A stretch of DNA of 64,000 bases from Candidatus Limnocylindrales bacterium (GTDB lineage Bacteria > Moduliflexota > Moduliflexia > Moduliflexales > JAUQPW01). How positions within the stretch are numbered: position 1 is the first letter of the stretch; each line of letters begins with the position of its first letter. A program made the translations under genes and the position numbers. The notes beneath the pieces are model-generated. The model had not been told where the DNA came from and searched no databases. It saw only the letters and a program-made list of their open reading frames with translations. Where the stretch lies: assembly GCA_035559535.1 (NCBI GenBank), contig DATMBG010000045.1, forward strand, positions 1 to 64,000, written 5' to 3'. Shown here one piece after another: positions 4,339 to 62,200 of the stretch.

Positions 4339-4383
4339 GCAGACCAGACGTTACCCTGGGAAAGGTTATTTCCCATCAGGAAA

Positions 4384-4560
4384 AAGTACTACCTGGTTTA
4401 CTTAGTTTTGCTTAACTTTTAAGTGGCCCTCACTCCTGGCCCCTCGCCCCCTCCCTCACCCTCCCCATGGACAGGGAGGGAAGGGGTGGGGCGGAGAGGG
4501 GGGGGGTTGGGGGTGAAAGCAGCCCTGTGAAGTCAAAATTAAGGTAACAGGGTAGTACTT
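4384..4560. mobile_element. MITE-like composite element with imperfect terminal inverted repeats enclosing a family A hairpin
   Basis: aagtactacc...ggtagtactt ends with extended imperfect IR; 4398-4445 is near reverse complement of 35685-35728. Confidence 0.55.
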
Positions 4561-4584
4561 CTCTACCTCCTATTCCACCGGCTT

Positions 4585-27941: not shown

Positions 27942-28035
27942 TAAAGTGCCTGAAGTTAAAGAAACTTCCAAGGCTTTGGCTCATTCAGGCACTTTAATTT
28001 ACCTTTGTAGGGGCACGGCGGCGCCGTGCTCCTAC
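27942..28035. repeat. intergenic inverted repeat plus GTAG-type REP
   Basis: taaagtgcctgaa...ttcaggcacttta; gtaggggcacggcggcgccgtgctcctac at 28007-28035. Confidence 0.7.
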
Positions 28036-28044
28036 TCCATAATT

Positions 28045-28950: not shown

Positions 28951-28958
28951 AACTTAAT

Positions 28959-45321: not shown

Positions 45322-47169
45322 ATGATCAAAAAAGTTATTGTTATCGGGCTTGATGGGTTTGAACCTAAGATCGTAGAATCCATGCTCGCTGCCGGAGAAT
45401 TACCGAACCTGGAGAAATTAAGAAGTCAAGGGGGGTACTCACGGGTTCGCACGACGTATCCGGCTCAAACGCCTGTAGCGTGGTCCACATTTGCCACCGG
45501 TACCAATCCAGGTGGTCATGGAATCTTTGACTTTGTTCGTCGAGATCCTAAAACTTACCTTCCCAATTTCTCCCTCAATCGATATGAACAGAAAAATGCC
45601 TACTTACCCCCTAAGGTGGTGAACCTGCGACGGGGTGTACCGCTATGGGAGCTCCTGTCGGCAGCCGGGATTCCCTCGATCCTGATACGTTTCCCCTGTA
45701 CGTATCCCCCGGATCATATTCGGGGACGGATGTTGGCAGGCATGGGTGTGCCGGATCTACGAGGCGGATTAGGAACCTCAACGTTTTATACTTCCGCCGA
45801 GAACGTGCAGGCCCAGGAAAGTGAGAATGTAATAAAAGTCCAGAGGAATGGAACCGGTCCCTTGACCACCTATCTTATAGGACCCCGTAACCCCAAAACC
45901 CGGTCAAACTTTCAGTTCGAAATCACCATCCGTCTCGAACCCTCTGCAAAGAAGATTATCCTTCAATCCGAGGGACAACCAAAAATACTGGAGGTCTATG
46001 AAGGAAAATGGAGTGATTGGCTTAAAGTAAAGTTCAAAACCGGGTTATTGCAGGGGATACGGGGTATGGTTCGTTTTTATTTGATTCACATAGACCCGGT
46101 GTTTGAACTCTATGCTTCACCGGTCAACTTCGACCCGGAAGGACCCTTATTCCCCATCAGTTCTCCTCCCGAGTATGCCAGGGAGTTGGCCAACAGGTTG
46201 GGAACGTTCTATACTACCGGAATGGTGGAAGATCATGGAGGATTAAACAACGGACGCTTTGACGAAATCGCCTACCTGATGCAGTGTGAAGAGGTACTAC
46301 GGGAACGCGAAAAGATGATGCTCTATGAACTGGAGCGTTTGGAAGAAGGATGGTTTTTTTGTTTGTTTGACACCCCTGACCGTGTTCAACACATGTTTTG
46401 GCGATTCAATGAAAGCGGGCATCCGGCTAATCGAAAGGATGTAACGGCTGACATGAAACAGGTCCTCTCGGAGCACTATCGCGCCTGTGACGCCGTGGTT
46501 GGAAAGGCACTCCAATACGTTGATGATCAAACCCTGTTCATCGTACTCAGTGATCACGGTATGAACAGCTTTCAGCGGGGAATTCATCTGAATACCTGGT
46601 TGTATGACCATGGCTTTTTGGCTTTGCGTAATGGAATTAAACCGGGGAAAGAGGCTGGTGATTTCTTCCGTCATGTGGACTGGGATCACACAAAAGCCTA
46701 TGCGCTGGGTCTGGGAGGTATTTACTTGAATCTGAAGGGGCGAGAAGAAAAGGGGATTGTAGAGGCCCAGGAAGCAGATACCGTGAAGTCTGCTATTATC
46801 CAGGGGCTTACGGGCCTGGGAGATCCGGTTCGAGGAAAAGTGGGCATACGGAGTGTTGTAACCCGAGAGCAGGTCTATAGCGGCCCCTATGCTTCGGAAT
46901 CTCCGGATCTTTTGGTTAACTTTGCCGAGGGTTATCGGGTATCCTGGGTTACGGCACTGGGTGGAATACCTGAAGGACATTTCGAAGATAATACAAAAAA
47001 ATGGGGAGGAGATCATATTATCGATCCCTGTCTGGTTCCTGGGGTATTGTTTATGAACCGGGCGTTTCGTGGGGAAAATGCAAGTCTCATGGATCTGGCT
47101 CCCACCATCCTTGCAGCCTTGGGAGTTCCCAAAGGCCCGGCCATGGAAGGAGAATCTCTGTTGATATGA
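45322..47169 (+). CDS. alkaline phosphatase superfamily, type I phosphodiesterase/nucleotide pyrophosphatase
   Basis: IGLDG, PAQTPVAWS (Thr nucleophile), DRVQH, SDHG, GGDH. Confidence 0.88.
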   Translation: MIKKVIVIGLDGFEPKIVESMLAAGELPNLEKLRSQGGYSRVRTTYPAQTPVAWSTFATGTNPGGHGIFDFVRRDPKTYLPNFSLNRYEQKNAYLPPKVVNLRRGVPLWELLSAAGIPSILIRFPCTYPPDHIRGRMLAGMGVPDLRGGLGTSTFYTSAENVQAQESENVIKVQRNGTGPLTTYLIGPRNPKTRSNFQFEITIRLEPSAKKIILQSEGQPKILEVYEGKWSDWLKVKFKTGLLQGIRGMVRFYLIHIDPVFELYASPVNFDPEGPLFPISSPPEYARELANRLGTFYTTGMVEDHGGLNNGRFDEIAYLMQCEEVLREREKMMLYELERLEEGWFFCLFDTPDRVQHMFWRFNESGHPANRKDVTADMKQVLSEHYRACDAVVGKALQYVDDQTLFIVLSDHGMNSFQRGIHLNTWLYDHGFLALRNGIKPGKEAGDFFRHVDWDHTKAYALGLGGIYLNLKGREEKGIVEAQEADTVKSAIIQGLTGLGDPVRGKVGIRSVVTREQVYSGPYASESPDLLVNFAEGYRVSWVTALGGIPEGHFEDNTKKWGGDHIIDPCLVPGVLFMNRAFRGENASLMDLAPTILAALGVPKGPAMEGESLLI

Positions 47170-48623
47170 AAATTTTAGTTATCGGCCTCGATGGGGCTAC
47201 CCCTGAAGTGTTATTCGGAGATGAACGCCTGGATAATTTCCGTCGTTTAATGGAAGCGGGCTGTTATGGTCGCCTGGAGACTGTTATTCCACCCCATAGA
47301 ATCCCGGCCTGGATGTGTATGGCTACCGGCCAGGACCCCGGCTCGTTGGGAACCTGGGGGCTTCAGAAGCCTACCGATAGCTCTCCTAATAATCTGGAAC
47401 CCGTTACCTCAAAACCCATATCGGAACCTTCCATCTGGAACCAGATAGCCCGGGAGGGGAAGCGAACCTGCCTTATCGGAGTACCCCTATGGGATCCACC
47501 CCAAGAGGGAAAGGGTGTTTGGGTAAGTTGTCCTTTACCCCATAAGGGGATTTATACCTATCCGGCGTCGGTAAACGAGCAGATTAGAAAACTGATAGGC
47601 TCCTATCCGGCGGATGTTAAACATTCTCGTTTTTATAAAAAAGACCAGCTCCTGGAGGAGATTTACACCATGAGTCGCAAACATTTCCAGGTGGTCCGAT
47701 ACTTTTTGCAGAACACAGATTGGGATTATTTTCAATGGGTCGAGATCGGACCGGACCGTTTGCAGCATGGTTTTTGGAGATTCCATGATCCACAACCTCC
47801 GCTCCATGAGCCGGGTAATCCCTATCAGGAAGTCATTCGTGATTACTATCTTTACCTGGATCACGAACTGGGAGCCATCCTGGATCTCCTGAGTGAGGAT
47901 ACCCTCATTTTGGTGATTTCGTGTTATGGTGTAAAACGGCTGGAGGGTGGCTTCTGTCTGAATGAGTGGTTGGTAAGGGAAGGCTTACTTGTGCTCAATG
48001 AATATCCCCAAGAGATTACCGCCTTTAACCAGCTCAGTGTGAATTGGGAAAAGACCCTGGTTTGTGGTGAGGGGGGGTATGCGGCAGGTTTATTCTTTAA
48101 CGTAAAAGGACGGGAACCTCGGGGGACTCTCTCCGAAGCGAATTATGAGAAATTCCGGGATGAAATCAGGAGGAAACTCAAAGCTATCTCAAACGACCAG
48201 GGTAAATCCCTGGAAGCAGTTGTCCTTAAGCCGGAAGAGATTTACACAAAGGTAAGGCCTGGAGTTCCTGACCTGTTGGTTCAGTTTGGTGGCTTTTCCT
48301 GGCGTGTGGTGGACAGTGTAGGACACCAGACCCTTTACCTTCAAGGCAATGATCCCCATCTGGATGACTGTAATCATGGGCAATTTGGGAGCTTTATTTT
48401 AGTAGCACCAGATAATCCTCTCCAGGGTGAAATTGAGAAAGTACGCTTACCAGATATGGCACCAACCCTGTTAGAGTTGGGAGGATATTCTGTGCCTTCC
48501 TCCATGCAGGGAAAATCTCTGCGGGCCAATAAGGTATCTAACGCAATAACTGACGAAGGTTTTTCAGCCGAGGAGGAAGAGATCATTCGGGAACGGTTAA
48601 GTGGATTGGGTTACATTGGATAA
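47166..48623 (+). CDS. phosphodiesterase/nucleotide pyrophosphatase family protein, degenerate active site
   Basis: ATGA overlap start MKILVIGLDG; PPHRIPAW, DRLQH, SCYG, C-terminal RERLSGLGY. Confidence 0.82.
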   Translation: MKILVIGLDGATPEVLFGDERLDNFRRLMEAGCYGRLETVIPPHRIPAWMCMATGQDPGSLGTWGLQKPTDSSPNNLEPVTSKPISEPSIWNQIAREGKRTCLIGVPLWDPPQEGKGVWVSCPLPHKGIYTYPASVNEQIRKLIGSYPADVKHSRFYKKDQLLEEIYTMSRKHFQVVRYFLQNTDWDYFQWVEIGPDRLQHGFWRFHDPQPPLHEPGNPYQEVIRDYYLYLDHELGAILDLLSEDTLILVISCYGVKRLEGGFCLNEWLVREGLLVLNEYPQEITAFNQLSVNWEKTLVCGEGGYAAGLFFNVKGREPRGTLSEANYEKFRDEIRRKLKAISNDQGKSLEAVVLKPEEIYTKVRPGVPDLLVQFGGFSWRVVDSVGHQTLYLQGNDPHLDDCNHGQFGSFILVAPDNPLQGEIEKVRLPDMAPTLLELGGYSVPSSMQGKSLRANKVSNAITDEGFSAEEEEIIRERLSGLGYIG

Positions 48624-48672
48624 ATCCATCGGGAAAAATCTTCCTCGGGTCTTACAGGAGACAGATCATAGG

Positions 48673-50493
48673 ATGATGACTCAAGAGAAGAAATCGGTTC
48701 TATCTACCCCCTCTATAGCGCCCGGCAAACTTTTACTTTTGGCAGCCTGGTTTGCATTGGCTACCGGTTTGGGAGAGATTTCGATCCGGGCGGTTCAGAA
48801 ATTCTTCCTGCACCAGCGTATCTACGTAAGCCCACAGGTCGTCTGGATGGCTCCTCTGGCCGATCTGGTTCTCTTTCTACTTTCGGGATCCATCCTCCTC
48901 CTTGTGGCCCGGTTCTGGCCCAGGGCAACCTCTCCGAAGATTGTTGTTTTTATCTTTGCCCTTCTCGGTTTTTCAGGCCCATTGTTATGGTTCCCGAAAC
49001 TGCATATCCTTGCGGCTCTTCTGCTGGCCATCGGCCTTTCTGTGCAAACGGCTCGTCTCCTTGAAAAACATATCTCGACCTTTTACCTCTTCAGCCGGTA
49101 CACCCTGGGAGGAATGTTGGCTGTCGTAATGGCATTGGCCGTTGGTATCAATGAGTGGCAGGTCTTAATAGAGCGTAATGCCCTGGCAAAACTCCCCCCG
49201 GCTCCTCCAGGTACTCCCAATGTCTTATTGATTGTATTGGACACCGTAAGGGCCTCAAGTCTCAGTCTATATGGTTATAATCGACCTACGACCCCCTCCT
49301 TAGAGAAGTTGGCCAAAACCGGTGTGGTCTTTGAAAAGGCCTTTGCAACTTCATCCTGGACCCTTCCTTCCCATGCCAGCCTGTTCACGGCCCGTTATCC
49401 CCATGAGGTTTCGGCAGACTGGCTGAAACCCCTGGATGCGACTTACCCTGTATTGGCTGAAGTTTTCCAGACTTATGGATATGTTACCGCCGGGTTTGTT
49501 GCCAACCTGTTGTATGGAACCTACGAGACGGGCCTTGCCCGCGGCTTTATTCACTACGAAGATTATCCTATATCTCCGGAGATGGTTATTAAGAGTTCGT
49601 GGCTGGCCCGGATCTTTGTAGACAAGCTGAAATTGATCAAAGGAGATACCGATAAACTCGTCTATAAATGGGCCGAAGAAATCAATGAAGATTTTCTGTC
49701 CTGGCTTTCCTGCCATAATTCACGACCCTTTTTCGTCTTTCTCAACTACATGGATGCCCACGCACCCTATCTGCCCCCTAAACCCTTTGATACCCTGTTT
49801 GGACCTAAAAGGCCTCGACCGGATAAATCGGTACGGAGAACCTGGTCTCCTCAGGAGATCCAGGTGGAGAGGGATGCCTATGAGGGTTGTATCGCTTATC
49901 TGGACCATCAACTGGGCTTACTCTTCGACGAATTGCAAAAACGGGGGATACTGGAAAACACTTTAATCGTTATTACCTCCGATCACGGGGAGCAGTTCGG
50001 AGAGCATGGTCTCTTTGATCACGGTAATAGCCTCTACCGGCCGTCGTTACAGGTTCCTCTATTTATTTCCTTCCCGGGACGTGTACCGGCCGGAAGGCGT
50101 GTTCATGAGGCCGTAACCCTGCGGGATATTCCGGCTACTATCCTGGACCTGGTCAAACCGGAAGCCAGCTCTCGCTTTCCCGGACATTCATTGGCTCGAT
50201 ATTGGAAGGGAACCGATAATTCCCACAGTTCCTCTTCTGCTTTACTTTCTGAAATCAGTAAATGCATTAACATGCCCGCATGGCTGCCGGCCTGTAAAGG
50301 AGATATGAAATCACTGGTGACCGATGGTATGCACTATATCAGGAACGGAGATGGTCGTGAAGAACTTTATGATCTTGAAAACGATCCGGCAGAAGAACAA
50401 GATCTTGCTAATTCTGAAGAAGGCCGTCAAAGGCTTGAGGAATTCAGAAGATCCCTTGAAACTATTCTCAGGTCTGACCGATTCCAGAGATAG
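48673..50493 (+). CDS. membrane-bound sulfatase-like hydrolase/transferase
   Basis: N-terminal TMs; PNVLLIVLDTVRA, SWTLPSHASLFT, DAHAPY, TSDHGE, ELYDLENDP. Confidence 0.85.
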   Translation: MMTQEKKSVLSTPSIAPGKLLLLAAWFALATGLGEISIRAVQKFFLHQRIYVSPQVVWMAPLADLVLFLLSGSILLLVARFWPRATSPKIVVFIFALLGFSGPLLWFPKLHILAALLLAIGLSVQTARLLEKHISTFYLFSRYTLGGMLAVVMALAVGINEWQVLIERNALAKLPPAPPGTPNVLLIVLDTVRASSLSLYGYNRPTTPSLEKLAKTGVVFEKAFATSSWTLPSHASLFTARYPHEVSADWLKPLDATYPVLAEVFQTYGYVTAGFVANLLYGTYETGLARGFIHYEDYPISPEMVIKSSWLARIFVDKLKLIKGDTDKLVYKWAEEINEDFLSWLSCHNSRPFFVFLNYMDAHAPYLPPKPFDTLFGPKRPRPDKSVRRTWSPQEIQVERDAYEGCIAYLDHQLGLLFDELQKRGILENTLIVITSDHGEQFGEHGLFDHGNSLYRPSLQVPLFISFPGRVPAGRRVHEAVTLRDIPATILDLVKPEASSRFPGHSLARYWKGTDNSHSSSSALLSEISKCINMPAWLPACKGDMKSLVTDGMHYIRNGDGREELYDLENDPAEEQDLANSEEGRQRLEEFRRSLETILRSDRFQR

Positions 50494-50608
50494 GGAGGCG
50501 GAGATACGGAGAAGTATGGGAGTATGGGAGTATGGGAGTATGGGAGAATTTACACCCACACTTCCACACTCCCATACTTAAGAACACACTCCCATACCCC
50601 CATACTTA
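50491..50608. repeat. inverted array of 8-bp GGGAGTAT tandem repeats
   Basis: (gggagtat)x3-ggg followed by cacactcccatac units. Confidence 0.85.
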
Positions 50609-50617
50609 AATGCCCCC

Positions 50618-52444
50618 GTGTTAGGATTTTCACTATTGATAGCCATCTGGTTTGGGCTCCTTACCGGTCTACTGGAGGTCGTCCTGCGAACGGTTCAAGG
50701 GTTCTATGTAAGTCGGACCCGGGAAGTAAGTCATGATTTTATCTGGATGTGCCCCCTGGCTAACGCTGGGATCCTTTTTCTCCTGGGACTGGTCATTTTT
50801 TTTGTTAGTCGGTTCTGGCCAAAGCTCAATCTCCTACGTCTTACCATTTTTTTATCCGCACTCTGGGGTTTTATGGACCTGATCATTCTCTACCCAAAGA
50901 TTCATCATTACGCAGCCTTATTGCTTGCTGCGGGTCTGGCTACGCAAACTTTACGCCTGATCTCCCCCCATATGCTTTCTTTTCAGAAGTTAGTTCGTCG
51001 GACCCTACCCTGGATGGGATTGCTGGTCGGAATGCTGGCAATAAGTGTCCAGGGAAAACAGATCCTTGCGGAACGGAGGGCTCTTGCCGATCTGACCCCT
51101 GCTCCTCCCTATGCGCCTAATGTGCTATTCATTACCCTGGATACCGTTCGGGCCAGGAATTTGAGCGTTTATGGTTACTCCCGACCCACTACGCCTCAGT
51201 TGGAGCAGTTAGCCAAAATGGGAGTGGTCTTCGAACGGGCCTTATCCACAGCCCCGTGGACCCTCCCCTCCCATGCCAGTATGTTCACCGGGCGCTTTCC
51301 CGGGGAATTATCTGCCGATTGGTTAACGCCGCTGGATTCAACCTATCCTACCCTGGCCGAATTCTTTAGGGCACGGGGGTATTTGACGGCGGGATTTGTA
51401 GGTAATACCGGCTATTGTAGCTATGAACACGGCCTTGATCGTGGTTTTATACACTATGAAGACTACCGAATATCTCTGGGGCAAACTGTCGCCAGCTCCA
51501 TGTTGACACGAACCATTGCAGATAACTTTAGACTCCGTAGAATTCTTCGTAATGATGAACACCTGAATCGCCAACCGGCCGATCAGATAAATGAGAAGGT
51601 GTTACGTTGGTTTTCCCATAAAGAGCAACGACCCTTTTTCGTGTTCATTAATTATTATGATGCCCATGAACCCTATCTCCCCCCTCCACCCTATGATAAG
51701 ATGTTCGGACCGGGACGGAAGTACGGAAAGTTTAGTCCGTTACATCGTCATAATTGGGAACCTGCGGTCATGCATCGGAAATTATCTCCAGAAGAGGTCC
51801 AGGAAGAAATAGATGCCTATGACGGGGCCATCGCTTACATAGATCATCAGCTTGGGCAGCTTCTCAATGAACTCGGGAGAAAAGGACTGTTGGAGAATAC
51901 GTTGATAATTATTACCTCGGATCACGGTGAAGAATTTGGGGAACATGGGATTTTCGACCACGGCAACAGTCTCTATCTCCCGACGGTGCATGTACCTTTA
52001 CTCATCGTCTTTCCATCCAAAGTGCCTGCAGGCAAGCGTATCCATGAACCGGTTTCCCTTCGGGATCTCGCGGCCACCGTCGTGGACCTGACCAGACTCG
52101 GCGGAGACCCTCACTTCCCGGGTAAATCCCTGGCACGATACTGGAATATGCCAGCTCAAGCTCCCGGCTTAGAGGAAACTCCCCTACTCTCTGAGGTATC
52201 TCGGGTGACCGGTCGTCCGACCTGGTTTCCGGTTAGCCGGGGAGATGTGAAAGCCCTGATATTTAATGGAATGCGCTACATTAAGAATGGGGATGGGGTG
52301 GAAGAACTTTACGATTTTGAAAATGATCCCTGGGAACAACGAAACCTGGCCAACCTGGAAGAGAGTTCCCAAATCCTTAACCAGTTTAGAGCCCTTCTGG
52401 AGAAGATTCTTAAATCCGAAGCCCGAAGTCAGAATTCCGGATGA
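50618..52444 (+). CDS. membrane-bound sulfatase-like hydrolase/transferase (tandem paralog)
   Basis: PNVLFITLDTVRA, PWTLPSHASMFTG, DAHEPY, TSDHGE; GTG start uncertain. Confidence 0.85.
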   Translation: MLGFSLLIAIWFGLLTGLLEVVLRTVQGFYVSRTREVSHDFIWMCPLANAGILFLLGLVIFFVSRFWPKLNLLRLTIFLSALWGFMDLIILYPKIHHYAALLLAAGLATQTLRLISPHMLSFQKLVRRTLPWMGLLVGMLAISVQGKQILAERRALADLTPAPPYAPNVLFITLDTVRARNLSVYGYSRPTTPQLEQLAKMGVVFERALSTAPWTLPSHASMFTGRFPGELSADWLTPLDSTYPTLAEFFRARGYLTAGFVGNTGYCSYEHGLDRGFIHYEDYRISLGQTVASSMLTRTIADNFRLRRILRNDEHLNRQPADQINEKVLRWFSHKEQRPFFVFINYYDAHEPYLPPPPYDKMFGPGRKYGKFSPLHRHNWEPAVMHRKLSPEEVQEEIDAYDGAIAYIDHQLGQLLNELGRKGLLENTLIIITSDHGEEFGEHGIFDHGNSLYLPTVHVPLLIVFPSKVPAGKRIHEPVSLRDLAATVVDLTRLGGDPHFPGKSLARYWNMPAQAPGLEETPLLSEVSRVTGRPTWFPVSRGDVKALIFNGMRYIKNGDGVEELYDFENDPWEQRNLANLEESSQILNQFRALLEKILKSEARSQNSG

Positions 52445-52597: not shown

Positions 52598-53947
52598 ATG
52601 AAAGATTCCCCTAGAACATATCAACGACTGACTCTAGTAATCCTTTTGCTTACTCTGGCAGGATCTGGGGTAGGGATAGCGGTACCCGCCGGTTCCGGTT
52701 GGGATTTCGGTAATTTCTATGATACGGGTAGGCGGGTTGTTGCCGGACAGATCCAGGATATATACCATGCAGAACGCCTTATCGGCGGAGAACCTCCCCA
52801 CGGGAAGATGCGTTTTTGGGGAACTCCAATATCTGCCTGGCTTTATGCCCCGCTGGGTTATCTTTCTCCCACCTGGGCTTTGATCGCTTTTAAAATTCAG
52901 AATACCCTTGCCTATTTTATTGCCTTAGGGTTGTTGTATTTTCATAATCGGAGGTTCGTGGGAAATCCTTATTCTTCCACTTTTGATAAAATTCAGTATG
53001 AGCTGGTACAGGCCAGGTTTGTGGCTGTATTTGCTTTCCTGAGTTTGATTTATCAACCCTTCTGGACGGTCTATCGGGTGGGTGGACAGACCACCCCAAC
53101 CCTGTTTTTATTGTTCACTCTGGCCCTCCTGAGTCATACCCAGCTACACCTTTTTTTATCTGCTTTATTTTTAATTCTCGCCTGTCTGATTAAACCCAGT
53201 TTTATTACCGCCCTGATCTTTCTGACCTGTATATCCGGACTTCGATTCTTTGGCTATGTGGTTGCTATATTCTCCCTGATCGGTCTTACTTCTCTCTCCA
53301 CAATGGGATGGAACCTTCACAAAGAATTTCTGATCCTTATGGGCGAAGGGACCCGGAAACTTTCTTCCTGGTTCTATAACAGTTCTTTGTATGTAACCCT
53401 CGACAATTTCAAGATATTCTTACCACCGCAACCCGATTCTTCGTTTCGTTCCATTATTTTCACCCTCTGTTTATTTGGGCTAAAAGCCATCGTCGTCGGC
53501 ACGTTTATTTATCTAATTATTCAAAGCCGTTCTCAAAAATGGTTTCCCACCGCAAGAAGGCACTTCGATTTCCTTATGGCGGTTTCTTTCAGTCTTCTGA
53601 TCTCTCAAGTTGTCTTTGAGCATTACCTGGCACCCCTTTTTCTGTTGCTTATCTATGTGGTGGCTTCCCATCGGTCTTTCAGTCCCGGAGCTATGACTTT
53701 AATCGGCCTTATCTTCCTGTTAGCTGTTGGACAAAACTTGATTTTGATTGATTTTCTTCGTACCCACTTTAAGTGGGACTCTCCTGTAGAACTTCTGCTC
53801 ACAGGTCTCTTTAAGAGTGGGCCTCTTCTTTTAACCCTGATCTTTCTGTGGAAATACTCCAGGGAGTTATTTCAAAGTTATGCTACACAGGCGTGGGCGA
53901 ATTATACCAGATCCGGTAGACGGATCTTTTTGAGCCTGATCCCTTAA
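52598..53947 (+). CDS. GT87-like (DUF2029) GT-C glycosyltransferase
   Basis: WDFGNFY..G, FWGTP..LYAPLG, GQTT, IKP, FEHY; many TMs. Confidence 0.75.
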   Translation: MKDSPRTYQRLTLVILLLTLAGSGVGIAVPAGSGWDFGNFYDTGRRVVAGQIQDIYHAERLIGGEPPHGKMRFWGTPISAWLYAPLGYLSPTWALIAFKIQNTLAYFIALGLLYFHNRRFVGNPYSSTFDKIQYELVQARFVAVFAFLSLIYQPFWTVYRVGGQTTPTLFLLFTLALLSHTQLHLFLSALFLILACLIKPSFITALIFLTCISGLRFFGYVVAIFSLIGLTSLSTMGWNLHKEFLILMGEGTRKLSSWFYNSSLYVTLDNFKIFLPPQPDSSFRSIIFTLCLFGLKAIVVGTFIYLIIQSRSQKWFPTARRHFDFLMAVSFSLLISQVVFEHYLAPLFLLLIYVVASHRSFSPGAMTLIGLIFLLAVGQNLILIDFLRTHFKWDSPVELLLTGLFKSGPLLLTLIFLWKYSRELFQSYATQAWANYTRSGRRIFLSLIP

Positions 53948-53973
53948 CTCCGTTCCTGTAAGAAGGAAGACAG

Positions 53974-54001
53974 GTAGGAGCGAAGGGCCCTTCGCCCCTG
54001 C
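53974..54001. repeat. GTAG-type REP-like palindrome
   Basis: gtaggagcgaagggcccttcgcccctgc. Confidence 0.6.
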
Positions 54002-54082
54002 TCCTCAAGGGTGTAAGCGTTTCATCTACATGGGGAAGGGAGTTAAGGGGAGGAGTTGCCCGAAGGGAAACGGTGACAAGTT

Positions 54083-56137
54083 ATGAAAACGCTGGGTTCC
54101 GAAAACCTATCCGGTCAGACTAAAGTAAAAGTGGTTCTCTTCTCAGGGGGTAGAGGATCGAGGGTTCTTTCAAAGCAACTCATTAACAATCCCCAAGTCA
54201 GGTTGACCCTTGCCATCAATGGTTATGATGACGGGGCCTCGACCGGTGAAGTCAGAAGATTTCTGGGTGATAGTCTTGGCCCTTCGGATTTTAGAAAGAA
54301 TGCTTCCCGAATGGCCGGCGAGCTCCAGTCTTGTAGTCGTGGACTTATTGAAATCCTCGATCTCCGATTCCCGGTGGGTTATTCGATGAATGAGGCCCTT
54401 AACTCATTTCGGATCCTCGGCGGTCAATCGATTTCCGGCGGAGATTTGGGTTCTATACGCTCTGAGTTCCAGGCTAAATTGGTAGCCCTACTCGCAGATA
54501 TAGATGAAATCTCCAGGAAAGCACTCGTTAGAAAACTTTCTTACTTCGAGGAAGAACTCCTGAGAACCCAACATCCTTTTTCTTTTTCCGATTGTAGTAT
54601 CGGAAATCTGGTCTTTGCAGGATGTTTTTTAGAAATGGGACGAAACTTTAATGCAGCCATAGAGGATTACTGTAATCTTTTAAATCTTCCTCCTGGTTTA
54701 ATCGAAAATGTAACCGATGGGGCCAATGCTTATCTTGTGGCTTTGGATGATCACCATCGGGTTCTGGCAAGTGAAGCGGATATTGTCAACGCGAACCGAC
54801 GCAACCACATCAAAGATATCTATCTGCTCCATCGCCCCCTTACTGAGGTAGAGCAGAACTGGTTAAAGTCGGCTTCAGCCGATGAGATTAAGCGTTTCCT
54901 TGAAAAACAATCTAAGACCCTGACACCTAATCCTCGTTTACTCAAGCGGATCGCAGAAGCCGATCTGATTATTTACTCGCCTGGAACCCAACATTCAAGC
55001 CTCTTTCCTTCCTATATGACACCCGGACTTGGCACCGCGATTGCAAAAAATCTTAAAGCGATCAAGCTGCTGATTACAAACCTCCAGGAAGATGCCGAGA
55101 TCCCGGACAGCAGTGCCGTGGATATTATTAATAAAGCCGTTTATTATCTGAAGGAGAAGAATCTATTGCCAATTCCGACCCCTTGTTTGATTACCCACTA
55201 TGTAATCAACGATCCAAATCACCAGGATCAAGAGACTCCCTATATCCCATTGGGTCGGCTTGAAACTTTGGAAGATCCACGTCTGGTTCGAATTGGAAAC
55301 TACGAAGAAGGAGTTACCGGGCGACACAATGCAGCCAAAATACTTACACCTTTTATTGAGTCGTTTCTCCAAAAAAGAGGACCCTGGAAGATGGCCGTTC
55401 TGTTTCTGGATACTTACTCTCTCAATAAAATCACCCAAACTTTACTGGAAATGCTGAGGGGAGGTATTCAGGACCTGCCTGCCGAAATCATGGTATTCTA
55501 TCAGAGTCAGGAGTTCTTAAGTCCTGATTTTGTCTCTTCACTCCCCTTCGGGGTCTATAACCTTTCTTCCGAATCCCCGGAAGCACCCTTCTCAAAGGTT
55601 CTTAAAGATCCGCGATTTGATTATATCGTCTTGTTTGAATCTTCCGGGATGTACAAAGGCGAGGATATTGTAAACCTCGTTTCGCTCTTGACCCACGGTC
55701 GATTAGATGCCGTATGGGGAAGTCGACGACTTTCCGTTAGTGATATCCATCAATCCTACAAACTCCGTTATCGTCATAACTTAGTTCTGGGTGCTCTAAG
55801 TTATATAGGGAGCCATATTTTAAGTCTTGCCTATCTATTACTTTATGGACGTTATATTTCGGACACCCTTTCAGGTGTCAGAGCCATCAAAGCTTCTTAT
55901 TTACGTACCGATGGGATCGATTTAAAACACAAATATGTCAATCAACACATCCTTTCCATGCTCTTACGCGACCGGGCTGCAATCTTTGAAACTCCGATTC
56001 AATTTTTTCCTATCTCTCCCGAGAAGGTCCGGCGTACCACGGTACTGGATGGGATTCAGTCTCTCCTCACCATTTTGAAATGGAGGTTTAAGTCGTTAAA
56101 ACGTCCTCAGGAGCCGGGAGAAACAAAAGATATATAA
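54083..56137 (+). CDS. CofD/YvcK(GlmR)-family domain fused to a degenerate GT2-like domain
   Basis: VLFSGGRG, YDDGASTG, PSDFR, SIGN, ADLIIYSPG; C-terminal DAVWGSR..SDTLSG..ETPI similar to the 57621 protein. Confidence 0.8.
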   Translation: MKTLGSENLSGQTKVKVVLFSGGRGSRVLSKQLINNPQVRLTLAINGYDDGASTGEVRRFLGDSLGPSDFRKNASRMAGELQSCSRGLIEILDLRFPVGYSMNEALNSFRILGGQSISGGDLGSIRSEFQAKLVALLADIDEISRKALVRKLSYFEEELLRTQHPFSFSDCSIGNLVFAGCFLEMGRNFNAAIEDYCNLLNLPPGLIENVTDGANAYLVALDDHHRVLASEADIVNANRRNHIKDIYLLHRPLTEVEQNWLKSASADEIKRFLEKQSKTLTPNPRLLKRIAEADLIIYSPGTQHSSLFPSYMTPGLGTAIAKNLKAIKLLITNLQEDAEIPDSSAVDIINKAVYYLKEKNLLPIPTPCLITHYVINDPNHQDQETPYIPLGRLETLEDPRLVRIGNYEEGVTGRHNAAKILTPFIESFLQKRGPWKMAVLFLDTYSLNKITQTLLEMLRGGIQDLPAEIMVFYQSQEFLSPDFVSSLPFGVYNLSSESPEAPFSKVLKDPRFDYIVLFESSGMYKGEDIVNLVSLLTHGRLDAVWGSRRLSVSDIHQSYKLRYRHNLVLGALSYIGSHILSLAYLLLYGRYISDTLSGVRAIKASYLRTDGIDLKHKYVNQHILSMLLRDRAAIFETPIQFFPISPEKVRRTTVLDGIQSLLTILKWRFKSLKRPQEPGETKDI

Positions 56138-56237
56138 AGCAAAGAGGTTTCTTTAAATAAACCCGATTTCAGGTTTGAAATTCCCGGCTGAGAAAGGGAG
56201 TTCCGGGTTTATTCAAGGAAACCACCGGAATGATAGA

Positions 56238-56888
56238 ATGAGGTATTGTTTTGATCTGTTCATTTTTGATATGGATGGCGTCCTGGCAGATACTTCCCCT
56301 TGCCACCGTCGAGCTTATGAGGACTTATGGCGCAGGATTGGGATCCGGGGTCCCGAGTATGAAACCATTGCAGGCCGAAAGACCTGCGATGTCATTAAAG
56401 AATTTACTGCGGGGTTAAAACCTTCTCCAGAACAGATCCAGGAATGGATTTTGTTTAAGCAATTACAGGCACGCCGGTATTTCTCTGCGGAGGTCATTAC
56501 CTATCCAGATACCGTTCGGGCTTTAACCACCCTTGCAAAATATAAAGCCCGTCTGGCCCTTGGAACCTCCGCTTCAAGGGATTCGACCCGGATGATCCTG
56601 AACCGGTTAGGGATCAGCGACCTCTTCTCTATCCTGGTTACCGGAGATGATGTAAAACACGGAAAACCATCCCCCGAGATCTACTTAAAAATTATCCAGA
56701 AAGCTGAGATCAGCCCCCACAAAACCCTGATTGTTGAAGATAGCCCCTCTGGACTTGAAGCAGCCATTGCCTCAACAGCTTATGCAGCTTCGGTAAGGAC
56801 CGGAAAAAAGATCGAGCATCCCAAATTTATCGGGAGCTTTTCGGATCTTTGTGAATTACTATCGAAATCAGGAATCGAGGTGCCATGA
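56238..56888 (+). CDS. HAD-superfamily phosphatase/phosphomutase (subfamily IA)
   Basis: FDMDGVL, GTS, GKPSP, VEDSPSG. Confidence 0.9.
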   Translation: MRYCFDLFIFDMDGVLADTSPCHRRAYEDLWRRIGIRGPEYETIAGRKTCDVIKEFTAGLKPSPEQIQEWILFKQLQARRYFSAEVITYPDTVRALTTLAKYKARLALGTSASRDSTRMILNRLGISDLFSILVTGDDVKHGKPSPEIYLKIIQKAEISPHKTLIVEDSPSGLEAAIASTAYAASVRTGKKIEHPKFIGSFSDLCELLSKSGIEVP

Positions 56889-57661
56889 ATCGTTTAATGA
56901 TCATTCCGGCCGCGGGTCTTGGCTCGCGTTTAAAGTCACCTCTGCCCAAAGTCCTTTTCCCGGTCAATGGAAAACCCATGATCGATTACTTGTTCGATCT
57001 ATATGCCTCTGTGATGGAATATTTTATTTTGGTTCTCCACCCTTCCTTTGAGAAGGAGGTACGAAATCACTGTGCTAATTATCCATTTCCCATCGGGTAT
57101 GAGCTTCAAAACTCCCCCACAGGAATGCTCGATGCAATCCTTATCCCAAAGGAACAGGTGCGAAAACTTGAACCGACCCGCATCTGGATTACCTGGTGTG
57201 ATCAGATCGCCGTTCAACCGGAAACGGTCATGAACCTGGTAGAGTTATCACACCAGGATCCTGAAGCAGCTTTAATTTTTCCGACTCTGCTACAAAGGAA
57301 GCCCTACGTCCATTTCGTTCGTAATGATTGGGGTGAAATTATCCAGGTCCTCCATCGCCGTGAAGGGGATGGGCTGCCCGAAGTGGGGGAAAGTGACCTG
57401 GGACTTTTTTGTTTATCCCGTAAAGCTTACCTGGATTTACTGGTCAAGTTCTCCTATGATATAAAAACAGGAGCGGTAACCCAAGAGAGAAATTTCCTGC
57501 CGTTTATCCCCTGGCTGAAGGGTCGGGGCCGAGTCCGAACGTTTTCCGGTTGTAACGAAATCGAATCTGTAGGCATCAATACGCCGGAGGATTTACATCG
57601 GGTAGAAAATTATTTACGCCGTGAAAGAAAAAGTCCTTTCCATTATTATTCCCGCTTATAA
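56885..57661 (+). CDS. sugar-phosphate nucleotidyltransferase (GlmU N-terminal-like)
   Basis: [27 protein letters not shown]. Confidence 0.88.
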
Positions 57662-58352
57662 CGAAGAACCCTTTATCGGGAAGCTATTAGAAAAGGTGAT
57701 GGCTGTGGATCTTTCCCGGCTTGGAATTACTAAAGAGATTATAGTGATCAACGACCATTCAACAGATCGTACCGCCGAAATTGTGAGCGGATTTAAAGAA
57801 GTCATTTTAAAGACCCTGCCGGAAAACAGTGGAAAGGGAGCGGCTGTCAGAACCGGAATAGCCCTGGCAACAGGGGATTATATCATTATACAGGATGCCG
57901 ATCTCGAATACGATCCCAACGACTACCTTCCCATGCTTAAGGTTCTCTTAGAGGATAAAGGGGATGTCGTATACGGCAGTCGCTATCTGAAATATCCTGA
58001 CCGTAGTAAGCTGATAAACCTGCTTACCGGTAAGCATCCTGGACAGTCCTGGGCCGCATATCTGGGGGGCCAGAGTCTGAGTTTTATAGCACTTTTCTAT
58101 ACCGGACACTATCTTACCGATACTGTAACCGCTCTGAAATTGTTTAAACGGGATATCATTAAATCTCTAGAGCTTGAGACCTCAGGGTTCGAACTGGACC
58201 ATGAAATTTCTTCAAAAATCCTGGCCCGAGGTTATATTATTAAAGAAGTTCCCATTAGCTACTTTCCACGAAGTAAAAAAGAGGGTAAAAAGATCGGCCT
58301 CAGGGACTGGTTTATCGCCTGGAAAACATTTGCCAGGTATCGAAAAGGGTAA
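57621..58352 (+). CDS. GT2, DPM1-like polyprenol-phosphate glycosyltransferase
   Basis: [41 protein letters not shown]. Confidence 0.92.
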
Positions 58353-58389: not shown

Positions 58390-59103
58390 ATGTTATCCAT
58401 CGTTCTTCCCGCATATAATGAAGAGAAGCGAATTCCAGGCTCTCTTCAGAAAATGATCCAGTATTTAAATAATTCAGATTATCTTTACGAGATTATCGTT
58501 GTAGATGATGGGAGTACAGACCATACGTTGGAGGTAGCTACCGCCGCAGCTACAGCCTGTAAGAATTTCAAGATTATCCAAAATAAAACCAATCGAGGAA
58601 AAGGCTACGCGGTGAAAACAGGCGTTCTCCAATCTAAGGGAGAGATTATTTTATTTTCCGATACCGATCTTTCCACACCCATAGAGGAATTACCCAAGTT
58701 GCTCAAATACCTCCAGGAAGGGTATGACATAGCCATTGGTTCAAGGGCACTTCCAGAATCTGAAGTTCGACTGCATCAAGCCAGGGGAAGAGAAGGGATG
58801 GGAAGGATCTTTAATTTTTTGGTCCAGGCTCTGGTTATAGAAGGGATCCGGGATACCCAGTGCGGATTTAAATGTTTTAAACGCCAGGCCGCGGAAGCTA
58901 TCTTTCAAAAGCAACGTCTTAACGGGTTTAGCTTCGATGTAGAAATTCTTTATCTGGCCAGAAAATTGGGCTATCGGATCGCAGAGGTACCTGTCGTGTG
59001 GTTGAATTCAAAGGAAACTAAAGTTTCGATTTTGAGGGATCCTCTCTATATGCTCATGGATTTACTGAAGATCCGATACTTTGACTTTATGGGGCTATAC
59101 TGA
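58390..59103 (+). CDS. GT2, ALG5-like polyprenyl-phosphate beta-glucosyltransferase
   Basis: PAYNEEKR, NRGKGYAV, SDTDLSTP, IGSR, DTQCGFK, FSFDVE. Confidence 0.92.
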   Translation: MLSIVLPAYNEEKRIPGSLQKMIQYLNNSDYLYEIIVVDDGSTDHTLEVATAAATACKNFKIIQNKTNRGKGYAVKTGVLQSKGEIILFSDTDLSTPIEELPKLLKYLQEGYDIAIGSRALPESEVRLHQARGREGMGRIFNFLVQALVIEGIRDTQCGFKCFKRQAAEAIFQKQRLNGFSFDVEILYLARKLGYRIAEVPVVWLNSKETKVSILRDPLYMLMDLLKIRYFDFMGLY

Positions 59104-59208: not shown

Positions 59209-62200
59209 ATGCTCTCATTTCCAGAGATTCCTAAAAATTTGGAAGCTTCCCATCAAAATGAAGCCGTCCGGGATTCTTCTCTCCATTTGATGAAGTTTTG
59301 GCTTGCAATTCTTTCAGTCATAGGGGTTTGGCTTGGGATCTTACTTTGGATTCATGCCCATAATCCGCGCCTCCTCCCCTCCTGGCACGGGTTTCTACAT
59401 ACGGCCATTGCCATGCGATTTACAGACGGATCGTTTCCTCCAGAGAATCCCTTCTTTGCCGGTGAAAAACTCCCCTACTACTGGGCATACCAGTACTTCG
59501 GTTTTATAGTAGCCCGAATTTTAAAAACCGATCTCCTTCATGCCTTTCGGTTTATAGCCCTGTCCAGTCTGGCCGTTTTAGTTATTTTCTCCGGATTAAC
59601 CGGATATAAATATTTTCGATCTATCGGAGCCGGCCTTTTGATCGGTTACCTTGCTGTGGCTGGAGCTAATCCCTTCGGACCGCTGATTGCGTTAGCTAAA
59701 CATTGGATAAAAGCTGCTCCTTTGATCAGCCCGGTATCCTCACAAACTCCCGTCGAGACCCTTTTTGTTACGAACCGAATGGCCGATGATTGGATGACCC
59801 AACCCCTCTTACCCGCCCTGTATATCTCCAGTGAATGGTGGCATGGACAGAATATCGTCTGGTTTATAGATATTTCTGCACGGGCTCCCGCTTTATCGTT
59901 GGTTTTTGTACTTCTCTTCCTTCTTTTGAGCCCCCGGCTAAAATTTGGAAAAATACTCCTTATAACTTTACTGGCCGCTCTTATAACGGCTTTTAACCCC
60001 ATCACCGGATTTGTAGTGTCTGGAAGCCTTCTGGGGGCCTCTCTGATAATACTCTGTCTGACGGCTTTAAAGCGTTCCCACTTCGGTTACAAGTTTAAAA
60101 AGCAGCCCCTCGTCCTGTCCCTCCTCTGCCTTACAGGTACCCTTCTGGCTGCACCTACCTACTATCATTTGTTTCTCCTTAACAAGGGAACTCTAAGCCT
60201 GACCTCTTCTTACTCTGTTTTTTATCTCTTTTTAAAATTGGCTGCCCTCTCGGCCAATTTTTTGATCCTGGTTTCCCTGGCGATTCTGGGTAGCTGGAAA
60301 TCATCTTATCGAGAAGGAATAGGACTCTGGACCCTGACCCTGGCCGGAATTCTTCTGTTACTTGTCGTTCCCCTTATTATTCTCTGGCCTCACAACGAGC
60401 ATAACCTGACCAACGCTGCCGCATGTCTCCTTGCCGTTCCGGCAGTTGCCTGGATAACCTGCCTGCCCAAGCGAAAAGAAGAAAGGATTTCTAAAGGATC
60501 TCTTTTTCTTTTACTCCTGGGGGTTCTCTTTCTACCTACAACCTTCTGTACCCTTCTTTCCTACACCGGAAGGCCCCCTCTTCCCCTTGGATTTCGGGGT
60601 CAAACCCTGCAGAGACTACCCGAAGAGGGTCCCCTCGAAAATTTATATGCCTGGATAAGGAATCAAACCCCTTCCGATGCCGTATTCCTTTGTGATCCCA
60701 ATGAACCTGTTAAAATGTCTGGAAACGTAGCCGAACTTCCGGCCTTTACCGCGAGAACTCTTTTCATAGATCTCCCCGGCTATCTTACTTCTCAGTACAA
60801 AGATGCGAACTTCAGGACTACGCTGGCCGGCAATGCAGCAAAGGGCTACCCTTTGACACCTCCTCAACGTAATTATCTCCGTCATCTGCAAAGACCTCTT
60901 TACCTGATTACCTATCATGCCGACCAGGAAGATCTTTTGAATCGGCTGATTCAACAAAACGGTGGGCCTATCTTTCGTCAAGATTTTGTAGCCGTGTTCA
61001 AAATCACCCTGGATCCGATAGAATTTCAACCTTCCAAGGCAGGATTTCAACCTTTGCAGTTTGATTTAGCTTTCTCGACCTATCTGGGAGGTTCACAATT
61101 TGAACACATCCGTGGGATTACTACAGATAGCTCCGGTAACATATATGTTACCGGTGGTACAACTTCCCCGGACTTTCCGGTTACAAACGGTGTCTATCAG
61201 ACCACCCTTAATCCTGCTAAACCAGATTCCCCCGATATTTCGCCCATGGATGTTTTCGTAACCAAATTAGATCCCGGCGGCAAAATCATCTGGTCTACTT
61301 TCCTGGGTGGCCCCAATTACGATCGAGCTTATGCCATTGCGGTAGATAACCAAGACTATGTCTATGTAGCAGGTCGGGCCGGTAAAGGTTTTCCGGTTAC
61401 CCGGGGAGCCTTTCAAACGTCCTTTCAAGGGGGGCAAGAAGCGCCTTTTTATGGCCCTCAAGATGGTTTCATCTGTAAACTGACTCCTGATGGTTCTAAA
61501 CTTGTTTTCTGCAGTTACTTTGGAACCCCAGACCCTTCCATTATTCGAGATATAGCGGTTGATCCAAAGGGAGATATTTACCTGGCATCGGGTTATTCCT
61601 CAGGCCGTTATCCTAAAGAAGTTCACAAGGTCTTTAATAATAAGCCCCATGGGGATCATGATGCTGTTATAGCCAAGATCCATTCCGATGGCTCCCGGGT
61701 ACTCTGGGCTACCTATCTGGGAGGTTCGGATTGGGAGAGTAACGAGAACTCTGTCCGTTTGGATGGAGCCGGGAATCCCTATGTTCTGTTAACAACCAGG
61801 TCGACCGATATGCCGGTCACCGAGAACGCCTATGGAAAGACGTATGCCGGCCATGGGGATCTCTATGTGGCGAAACTCACACCCGATGAAGGGAAATTAG
61901 TCTGGGGTACCTACCTGGGGGGACCTGAAAACGAATCCACCGAAACCCATGAATTCGCCGTAGATGCTGAAGGTAATGCTTACATTGCAGCTCCAACCAA
62001 GTCCCCCGACTTTCCCACCACTCCCGGAGCTTTTCAAAGAAAATATGAGGGGGGCCCCAATGAAATATTCGTGGCTAAAATTTCACCAGATGGTTCACAA
62101 CTTTTGGCCAGTACTCTCCTGGGGGGAAAGGATAGAGATAGACCGGAAGGTGTGGCGGTGGATACAGCCGGTAATGTCTACTTTACCGGTACAACCACCT

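Follow-up and report, generated by a model that had tools for sequence, protein, structure and literature searches.

A divergent CofD/YvcK-fold domain fused to a degenerate glycosyltransferase-like domain in a candidate supply line for a lipid-linked sugar donor

A polyprenyl-phosphate sugar synthase feeding a membrane glycosyltransferase of the GT-C type is a known arrangement, exemplified by Ppm1/PimE in mycobacteria and by the GtrB/GtrA/Gtr-type, ArnC/ArnT and GacI/GacL systems. Elsewhere, CofD, whose activity is phospholactate transfer, is obligately paired with the nucleotidyltransferase CofC (FbiA and FbiD, respectively) on the way to coenzyme F420; YvcK/GlmR genes (UPF0052) have neighbours of the yvcJ/whiA type; and ADP/GDP-heptose is made by a kinase, a phosphatase and a nucleotidyltransferase (HldE/GmhB/HldC for ADP-heptose). 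YvcK binds UDP-Glc and UDP-GlcNAc, in Bacillus subtilis through Tyr265/Arg301 (PMC5482804), GlmR is reported to convert GlcNAc-1-P and UTP into UDP-GlcNAc, D40/D41 being the predicted catalytic residues (PMC10128056), and a phage route to UDP-arabinofuranose employs an isomerase, a C1 kinase, a 5-phosphatase and a nucleotidyltransferase (PMC13326640). Here, we analyse a gene set in a 64,000-nucleotide stretch (the window: positions 1 to 64,000 of contig DATMBG010000045.1) from the assembly GCA_035559535.1 of a Candidatus Limnocylindrales bacterium, centred on a 684-amino-acid protein in which a CofD/YvcK-fold domain is joined to a glycosyltransferase-like domain and accompanied by genes for a GT87-like GT-C, a HAD hydrolase, a nucleotidyltransferase and a free-standing GT2 enzyme.

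These genes very probably constitute one functional module that ends in a lipid-linked donor for a GT-C. As in the synthase/GT-C systems, a short DPM1-like GT2 with a DxD motif lies by a GT-C of the PimE fold, and related loci of the module contain putative flippase genes of the DedA and MprF types; unlike in those systems, the GT-C partner is interchangeable. To our knowledge, none of them has a CofD/YvcK-fold domain, a dedicated nucleotidyltransferase joined to the synthase, or an inactive paralogue of the GT-A type. The CofD-fold step, the obligatory nucleotidyltransferase, the pseudo-GT2 domain and the reach into viruses are the undescribed parts of an otherwise known scheme. Full-text literature searches, whose coverage left out most subscription journals, found no paper describing a CofD/YvcK::GT2 fusion or this cassette, in agreement with an earlier reading of the window made from the sequence alone (the sequence-only reading), which knew of no described counterpart of the cassette.

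That reading had picked out five open reading frames (ORFs) and described one of them as a CofD::GT2-like fusion. All five lie where it had placed them, on the forward strand, with an ATG at 52598 as the likely start of the GT87-like gene, and the fusion ORF (54083-56137) encodes one uninterrupted protein in a single open frame. Relatives of the fusion were sought in a collection of 5.8 billion proteins, giving 2023 matches among 8000 scored candidates. The best 120 listed, which are 56-95% identical to it, all contain PF01933 (120/120), and 118 of them are 605-727 amino acids long; the remaining two, P0007 (1172 amino acids) and P0009 (1165 amino acids), bear an extra N-terminal GT87 domain of a type 59% identical to the GT87-like protein of the window. 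Because the frame is single and open and the relatives have its length, a frameshift artefact is ruled out and the fusion is genuine. Source names of the listed relatives include Acidobacteriota (Blastocatellia, Pyrinomonadaceae), Gemmatimonadota and Entotheonellia. Among 40 other genomes of the same genus, order or domain, the fusion was found only in the same-genus genome; a full-length match was found in none of the seven same-order genomes, and origin by horizontal transfer would therefore fit this distribution.

The N-terminal domain matches Pfam CofD (PF01933) at 69.7 bits over residues 17-378, well past the gathering score of 30 bits. Against the YvcK/GlmR model TIGR01826 it scores 57.2 bits, under the 196-bit cut-off, and it also remains under the cut-off of TIGR04357, whilst the whole protein has no match to TIGR01819 (CofD, cut-off 257 bits) at E <= 0.01. 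Other contigs of the genome encode a YvcK of the canonical kind (TIGR01826, 248 bits) and, beside CofE, a canonical CofD (TIGR01819, 349 bits), so that we rejected the identification of the fused domain with either. Since the genome has its own copy of each, the fused domain is classed here, from these profile scores and alignments, as a third paralogue representing a third, divergent subfamily of the CofD/YvcK fold. Alignment with the genome's YvcK and CofD reveals two large insertions and motifs particular to the subfamily (NGYDDGASTGEVRR, LGPSDFRKN and PGTQHSSLFPSY), as well as a D49/D50 pair that is invariant in the cellular family and matches D40/D41 of GlmR.

An AlphaFold2 model of the fusion, built on an 83-row alignment (predicted local distance difference test, pLDDT, 83.9; predicted template modelling score, pTM, 0.71), was searched against the PDB with Foldseek. 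The N-terminal domain found the YvcK/UPF0052 structures 2hzb, 2o2z and 2ppv first (target template modelling score, TM, 0.69-0.73), with the CofD/FbiA structures 3c3e and 6uw1 weaker. A glycine-rich N-terminus, the DD pair and a PG-x-x-x-S loop are common to the domain and YvcK/GlmR; beyond its low TIGR01826 score, it departs from them in some 100 extra residues and in being always linked to a nucleotidyltransferase and a glycosyltransferase.

This kinship invites the explanation that the YvcK-fold domain stands off the main chemical line, binds a nucleoside diphosphate (NDP)-sugar and regulates or feeds the GT2, or serves as an accessory nucleotidyltransferase, with the dead GT-A domain docked onto the active GT2. 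YvcK/GlmR proteins are indeed the closest solved folds, and the literature speaks of UDP-Glc and UDP-GlcNAc binding by YvcK (PMC5482804) and of uridyltransferase activity in GlmR with D40/D41 as predicted catalytic residues (PMC10128056), to which the invariant D49/D50 pair corresponds. However, the genome already has a canonical YvcK, compared with which the fused domain scores poorly and carries its two insertions; one would hardly expect a pure regulator to be built into the four-domain enzymes of Nanoarchaeota/Patescibacteria bins or into phage clusters, both described below; a second nucleotidyltransferase would be redundant with the NTP_transf_3 enzyme that is always present; and the second aspartate of the pair is alanine in the phage protein of locus L110. 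We regard such a GlmR-like role as quite improbable.

The C-terminal domain lacks the PxxNE, DGGSxD and DxD motifs, has FESSGMY where the free GT2 has QDADLEY, and gives no match to Pfam PF00535 (GT2). BLASTP nevertheless finds 27% identity (E 8e-13) between residues 513-668 of the fusion and 86-241 of the free enzyme, FESSGMY facing QDADLEY, so that the earlier description of the domain as a DxD-less paralogue of the neighbouring enzyme stands. Foldseek places its model with ArnC (9bhc, E 1.8e-7), the Pyrococcus DPMS (5mlz, E 1.1e-6) and GtrB—all polyprenyl-phosphate glycosyltransferases—and recovers a GT-A fold with interface helices. A DxD is found in 0/83 aligned members of the branch, in which the position reads FESSGMY (61), FDSSGMY (16) or one of six single variants. 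S520, Y524, W545, G546-S551, D554 and D594 are invariant in the same 83 sequences, and conservation is strong in the C-terminal half (WGSRRLS, D594, E636-P638), a pattern that suggests a dead GT-A domain held under strong selection.

By contrast with the fused domain, the free GT2 matches PF00535 (Glycos_transf_2) at 116.4 bits, above the cut-off. DPMS 5mlz is its best PDB match, followed by ArnC and GtrB; AglJ, dolichyl-phosphate hexose transferase and PpgS-type enzymes are nearest in NCBIfam; and the aspartate pair of its DxD is retained in 25/25 orthologues (QDADLEY 23, QDADNEY 1, QDGDLEY 1). By homology, it is likely to be a polyprenyl-phosphate sugar synthase. The free enzyme and the GT2 domain of another CofD::GT2 protein, P0159, share 53% identity across 236 residues (E 2e-77). 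In a 34-member alignment of the wider family, the DxD position reads QDADLEY in 5 members, [FY]P[SAC]DxEY in 22 and [FL][ED]SSGMY in 7, the last all from the window's branch, and it is in that branch only that PxxNE and DGGSxD are lost. These alignments identify the free GT2 as the orthologue of an ancestral fused, active GT2 and the fused copy as a degenerate paralogue. The simplest history would be that the ancestor was a CofD::GT2 protein with an active GT2, that this GT2 was duplicated in the window's branch, and that the free copy then kept catalysis as the fused copy became a conserved pseudo-enzyme. Of the active/inactive GT2 pair put forward by the sequence-only reading, both members are present; their physical pairing is conjectural, and a complex prediction for the fusion and the free GT2, run without controls, scored 0.00 and speaks neither for nor against it.

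The family reaches well beyond this branch. A HMMER pass over 1.84 billion representatives of a 50%-clustered library returned 1599 proteins at E <= 0.001; besides the close branch, these include a large second tier that is 28-35% identical along the whole length. Pfam architectures were scored for 30 of 150 listed members: 16 combine CofD with a recognisable GT2, nine have CofD only, three have NTP_transf_3, CofD and GT2, one has NTP_transf_3 and CofD, and one (P0185, 1148 amino acids) unites HAD, NTP_transf_3, CofD and GT2 in a single chain. Among the best 120 relatives of P0185 listed, CofD and GT2 occur in all, a nucleotidyltransferase domain in addition in 18, and HAD plus nucleotidyltransferase in two. 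Named in their sources only as 'YvcK family' or 'CofD family' proteins, these relatives come, by source name, from Nanoarchaeota, Patescibacteria/Saccharimonadales, Dependentiae, Oligoflexia, Bdellovibrionota and Magnetococcales, the Nanoarchaeota and Patescibacteria entries being metagenome bins. The HAD of the window aligns with that of P0185 at 31% identity over 181 residues (E 5e-27) and its nucleotidyltransferase at 36% over 248 residues (E 3e-46); together with the match of the free GT2 to P0159, these similarities mark the three separate enzymes of the window as orthologues of the fused domains. Three CofD-like ORFs of about 440 amino acids in unrelated genomes (L099-L101) were dropped, having no nucleotidyltransferase or GT2 neighbours and the look of ordinary YvcK relatives.

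Conservation of the gene set was assessed in 80 loci of the fusion's branch from a metagenome scan, using tblastn with the proteins of the window (at least 35% identity and at least 50% coverage). Twenty loci counted as well flanked, their upstream flank measuring 4.5 kb or more and their downstream flank 2.5 kb or more. Here, the nucleotidyltransferase and the free GT2 are each present in 20/20, the GT87-like protein and the HAD each in 5/20, the large DUF2298/SBBP protein in 2/20 and an LtaS-like protein in 1/20; LtaS/EptA-like homologues also lie near the module in L023, L026, L042 and L045. Given these counts, what stays constant is the fusion together with its nucleotidyltransferase and the free GT2, whereas the HAD is optional and the membrane transferase exchangeable; the order of all five genes does not hold as a block. 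The nucleotidyltransferase gene directly follows the fusion on the same strand in 30 of the 35 loci whose downstream flank is 2.5 kb or longer; in others of the 35, such as L029, L041 and L044, the nucleotidyltransferase-GT2 pair is upstream on the opposite strand. GT87 occurs in 13 of 55 loci whose upstream flank is 1.5 kb or longer. In the same-genus genome, the entire order is kept from the phosphodiesterase gene through GT4.

Recurrent neighbours in other loci comprise DedA/VTT and LPG_synthase_TM proteins, PMT_2/GT22-like GT-Cs, GtrB-like GT2s, B12-radical-SAM enzymes and methyltransferases; the first three of these support a lipid-linked donor. Co-location and multi-domain fusions likewise bear out the proposal that the genes serve one pathway. 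That they are instead chance neighbours in a very large envelope-polysaccharide cluster, with the fused GT-A as a decaying remnant, might be argued from the window, all 64 kb of which is a forward-strand array of glycan genes, and from the low frequency of HAD and GT87; yet the nucleotidyltransferase and GT2 are found in every well-flanked locus, fusions in several orders link the parts, and the supposed remnant is highly conserved, with S520, Y524, W545, G546-S551 and D594 invariant in 83 sequences. These data already contradict the absence of a dedicated pathway, to which we give hardly any credence.

Of the two soluble enzymes that complete the set, the HAD belongs to HAD_2/HAD-IA only (HAD_2, 98.5 bits). 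It falls short of the beta-phosphoglucomutase models TIGR02009 (111 bits, cut-off 153) and TIGR01990 (84 bits, cut-off 189), and its best PDB match is the sugar phosphatase TM_1254. The nucleotidyltransferase matches NTP_transf_3 at 56.8 bits and carries the G-x-G-S/T-R...PK signature. Its residues 5-249 align with positions 3-241 of TIGR01173, the GlmU uridyltransferase domain, and residues 1-253 with residues 11-257 of the GlmU structure 9dqf, sugar-binding lobe included; MobA-type models (MocA, CobY) are much weaker than GlmU, and there is no CofC model among the matches. By homology, it looks like a sugar-1-phosphate nucleotidyltransferase of the GlmU N-domain type.

On the membrane side, Pfam GT87 (PF09594) reaches 20.5 bits on the window protein, under its 25-bit cut-off, and is carried by 117 of 120 listed orthologues (44-92% identical). 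The first loop after the first transmembrane segment contains an invariant WDF-NF-D-TG-R motif, with D43 invariant and D49 nearly so; in PimE, the catalytic aspartate sits in this first extracytoplasmic loop. A sequence-profile search against the PDB found nothing, whereas an AlphaFold2 model from 53 orthologues (pLDDT 91.8, pTM 0.92) led Foldseek to PimE first (9dm7/9dm5, E 3.5e-5, TM 0.71-0.73), then to ALG6, GPI mannosyltransferase I and ArnT. The protein is accordingly a GT-C, as had been supposed, with PimE as its nearest solved fold.

In loci without GT87, other polytopic proteins of 500-930 amino acids adjoin the module; they represent at least three families, and two have weak PMT_2 or GT22 matches, most having no Pfam match. 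One metagenomic protein, P0136 (1283 amino acids), is a CofD::GT2-like fusion of the degenerate type extended by a membrane domain with about 14 transmembrane segments by a simple hydropathy count, and this domain is 42-46% identical to unannotated membrane neighbours of about 700 amino acids in L041, L044, L088 and L089. The roughly 700-residue family (the P0136 domain and proteins of L041, L044, L080, L088, L089 and L095) shows 9-13 transmembrane segments by hydropathy, has no Pfam match and bears a weak resemblance to the DUF2298-like N-terminal portion of the large protein at 59209-62493 in the window. It is probably an unclassified GT-C family.

Viruses provide the module with other partners. 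Scanning IMG/VR with the family alignment, with two subfamily motifs as search patterns, gave 41 loci (L102-L142); the named records of the phage collection were limited to one uncultured phage and Ralstonia phage RsoM2USA, whose protein is 38.6% identical and annotated as hypothetical. The CofD-like protein of L110 is closer to the CofD domain of P0185 (E 2e-26) than to the YvcK of our genome (9e-10). An NTP_transf_3-type gene follows the viral CofD-like gene in 36/41 loci, or 34/37 with enough flank, and a gene resembling T4 beta-glucosyltransferase precedes it in 24/41. Thymidylate-synthase-like genes occur in 19 of the viral loci, dTMP-kinase-like genes in 22 and guanylate-kinase genes in 14. 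No GT2-type (polyprenyl-phosphate) transferase was found in 40/41 loci, the other, L128, having one short GT2b-like fragment.

In the 636-amino-acid protein of L110, the CofD-like part precedes a HAD-like one that shows a Hydrolase_3 match and a DxDxT motif; alignments covering almost all of this protein type were obtained in 16 further loci, the HAD part having been checked in L110 only. In the 554-residue protein of L102, CofD is the sole Pfam match. Two giant-virus-type loci (L120:9995-12319 and L130:10001-12472) encode CofD-like/NTP_transf_3 fusions of 774-823 amino acids with about 200 unassigned residues between the domains; the L120 fusion adjoins a Fringe-like glycosyltransferase and a DUF6492 protein, and no glycosyltransferase was matched among the other scanned neighbours of L130. 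Phage clusters such as L110:8451-13367 and L102:7762-12390, which combine T4 beta-glucosyltransferase-like, CofD-like and NTP_transf_3 genes, look like an undescribed DNA-glycosylation pathway requiring its own nucleotide sugar.

The CofD-like domain and the nucleotidyltransferase thus travel together, often with a HAD, and the partner glycosyltransferase changes class. Because the motifs stay constant through these changes, the CofD-like domain is most simply seen as a maker of a shared soluble substrate. We read the set of CofD-like domain, HAD and nucleotidyltransferase as a nucleotide-sugar supply line because the last resembles a sugar-1-phosphate nucleotidyltransferase and because the partner may belong to the lipid-phosphate GT2s, the DNA glucosyltransferases or the Fringe-like enzymes.

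The CofC/CofD precedent suggests a different chemistry. Here too, a nucleotidyltransferase is obligately paired with a CofD-fold protein, and the N-terminal domain passes the PF01933 threshold. By that logic, the nucleotidyltransferase would make an NDP-activated sugar phosphate or alcohol phosphate, and the CofD-like domain, releasing nucleoside monophosphate, would pass the phospho-sugar or phospho-group to a hydroxyl on the product of the GT2, a lipid-linked sugar presented by the dead GT-A; a phosphodiester-bearing lipid-linked donor would result, and the HAD would trim a terminal phosphate. Within the family, CofD is the sole member with an established transferase reaction, in an obligate pair with its nucleotidyltransferase (PMC8764529), and in our data the nucleotidyltransferase and CofD-like domain are fused or adjacent everywhere. 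A nucleotide-blind DPM1-like domain conserved on its acceptor side fits lipid-sugar binding, so that its retention is better explained than by a supply line, and LtaS/EptA-like phospho-group transferases neighbour the module in the window, L023, L026, L042 and L045. Set against this are the GlmU-like character of the nucleotidyltransferase over its whole length, with much weaker MocA/CobY and no CofC matches; the want of a TIGR01819 match in a domain with large insertions and different motifs, in a genome that keeps its own CofD beside CofE at a separate locus; and the absence of any F420 context (cofE/cofC) around the fusion, whose neighbours are the GT87-like, HAD, nucleotidyltransferase and GT2 genes. 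Moreover, viral proteins keep the motifs beside DNA- or Fringe-type glycosyltransferases, with no GT2-type found, and the acceptor would have to change radically. That the CofD-like/nucleotidyltransferase pair serves GT-B-type (T4 beta-glucosyltransferase-like) and Fringe-like partners in viruses points instead to nucleotide-sugar supply. CofD-type transfer of a phospho-group is not needed to account for the data, and we judge it unlikely.

Beyond the observed architectures, orthology, co-location and folds, the supply line that we infer would run as follows. The CofD/YvcK-like domain would perform a phosphoryl transfer yielding a sugar 1-phosphate, most likely, given its associations, as an anomeric kinase on a sugar or a sugar n-phosphate. 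The HAD, where present, may strip the distal phosphate of a 1,n-bisphosphate or act as a mutase, and the GlmU-like enzyme would then form the NDP-sugar, roles that are again suggested by the company these proteins keep. An optional HAD could reflect the choice of starting material, a free sugar needing no phosphatase and a sugar n-phosphate needing one. By homology, the free DPM1-like GT2 would move the sugar from the NDP-sugar onto polyprenyl phosphate, and, after flipping, the GT87-like GT-C (or, elsewhere, another polytopic protein) would hand it on, outside the membrane, to a glycan or lipid of the envelope. For the dead GT-A domain we can only guess at a role: it may tether the soluble line to the membrane, bind polyprenyl phosphate as substrate or the product made from it, or act as a partner of the free GT2. 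The same three-part logic of kinase, HAD phosphatase and nucleotidyltransferase underlies HldE/GmhB/HldC and the phage AfhE-type routes (PMC13326640), phage DNA glycosylation included, and in the module the HAD and nucleotidyltransferase are fused or adjacent; but those routes employ a kinase of the ribokinase or APH type at the step where the module has a predicted CofD/YvcK-fold phosphotransfer domain.

Taken whole, a nucleotide-sugar supply line of phosphotransfer, phosphatase and nucleotidyltransferase feeding a polyprenyl-phosphate GT2 and a GT-C is our best explanation, with a chance that we put slightly below even; the kinase-type role of the CofD-like domain, considered separately, is more doubtful. 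Several points weigh against this explanation. We know of no sugar kinase in the CofD/YvcK family. The HAD is absent in 15/20 loci, and a bisphosphate intermediate is therefore not universal. For a dead GT-A domain with 58% mean column identity across 83 aligned members, among them sequences named from several phyla, the supply line offers only a soft rationale. No flippase gene is adjacent to the module in the window, and the 41 viral loci include near-identical copies (e.g. L110/L111/L113), so that their counts overstate independence.

The features of the module and its immediate neighbours are listed in Table 1.

Table 1. Features of the module and adjoining genes, in positions of the window.
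Feature	Position	Strand	Basis or remark
Two Phosphodiest-family genes, then two membrane-anchored sulfatase/LtaS/EptA-like genes	45322..52444	+	Directly upstream of the GT87-like gene
GT87-like GT-C, 456 amino acids	52577..53947	+	Likely start ATG 52598
CofD/YvcK-fold N-terminal domain of the 684-residue fusion, about residues 1-430	54083..55372	+	PF01933
DPM1/ArnC/GtrB-like GT-A C-terminal domain of the fusion, about residues 435-684	55385..56137	+	Foldseek
HAD-IA hydrolase, beta-phosphoglucomutase/sugar-phosphatase group, 237 amino acids	56175..56888	+	HAD_2
GlmU-N-terminal-like sugar-1-phosphate nucleotidyltransferase (by homology), 258 amino acids	56885..57661	+	NTP_transf_3
Active DPM1-like GT2, 243 amino acids, QDADLEY, no transmembrane helix	57621..58352	+	PF00535
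Second short GT2, ArnC/DPM-like	58390-59103	+	Pfam/NCBIfam
DUF2298-like polytopic protein, 1094 amino acids, C-terminal SBBP beta-propeller (five SBBP repeats)	59209-62493	+	

The HAD and nucleotidyltransferase ORFs overlap by 4 nucleotides (56885-56888) and the nucleotidyltransferase and GT2 ORFs by 41 (57621-57661) with the GT2 called from GTG 57621, overlaps that suggest translational coupling; orthologue alignments of the free GT2 begin some 4-6 codons downstream of that GTG. GC content is slightly lower over 53-59 kb (0.43-0.47) than in the flanks (0.48-0.50). The second GT2 has no significant similarity to the fused GT-A domain and probably forms, with the DUF2298-like protein, a second donor/GT-C pair. 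The Phosphodiest and LtaS/EptA-like genes are possible phospho-group decorators of the same glycan.

The rest of the window continues the array of envelope-glycan genes, comprising GT2, GT4, GT-C, flippase-like and sugar-modifying functions, and also encodes two PMT_2 GT-Cs, a Wzx-like flippase, a B12-radical-SAM enzyme and, in the 3301-5616 and 27946-31432 regions, two pairs in each of which a GT2 accompanies an LPG_synthase_TM protein resembling the MprF flippase. A flavin amine-oxidase-like protein (29978-31432) comes after the pair at 27946-29981, a second such gene (1034-2908) lies upstream of the other pair, and a similar oxidase is found upstream of a GT-C in L025. B12-binding radical-SAM enzymes (42851-44215 in the window, L041:7282-8865 and L044:8281-9816) recur near the module in unrelated loci, which suggests C-methylation or similar tailoring of the glycan or lipid.

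There is a real chance that the module harbours a new enzyme activity in the CofD-fold family. A bolder proposal, which we consider rather unlikely as it stands, is that the members of the third CofD/YvcK-fold subfamily are sugar phosphotransferases of a new class, either anomeric kinases or bisphosphate synthases, and that the subfamily forms, with the nucleotidyltransferase and often a HAD, a portable nucleotide-sugar factory, wired to a polyprenyl-phosphate GT2 in cells (several bacterial phyla and Patescibacteria/Nanoarchaeota bins) and to DNA or glycan glycosyltransferases in jumbo phages and giant viruses; the sugar might itself be new in nucleotide-activated form. If so, a large family named only 'YvcK family' or 'CofD family'—the 1599 representatives above—would gain its first biochemical context, and proteins named from metagenome bins of tiny-genome microbes, Patescibacteria and Nanoarchaeota, would contain a one-polypeptide route from a sugar to a lipid-linked donor. 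Envelope glycosylation in abundant soil phyla (Acidobacteriota, Gemmatimonadota) would be linked to the DNA-glycosylation clusters of jumbo phages, and the fused GT-A would offer a clean natural case of a glycosyltransferase domain duplicated, split off and left as a conserved pseudo-enzyme. A few soluble proteins would then be enough to test directly which sugar is made and what the CofD-fold domain contributes.

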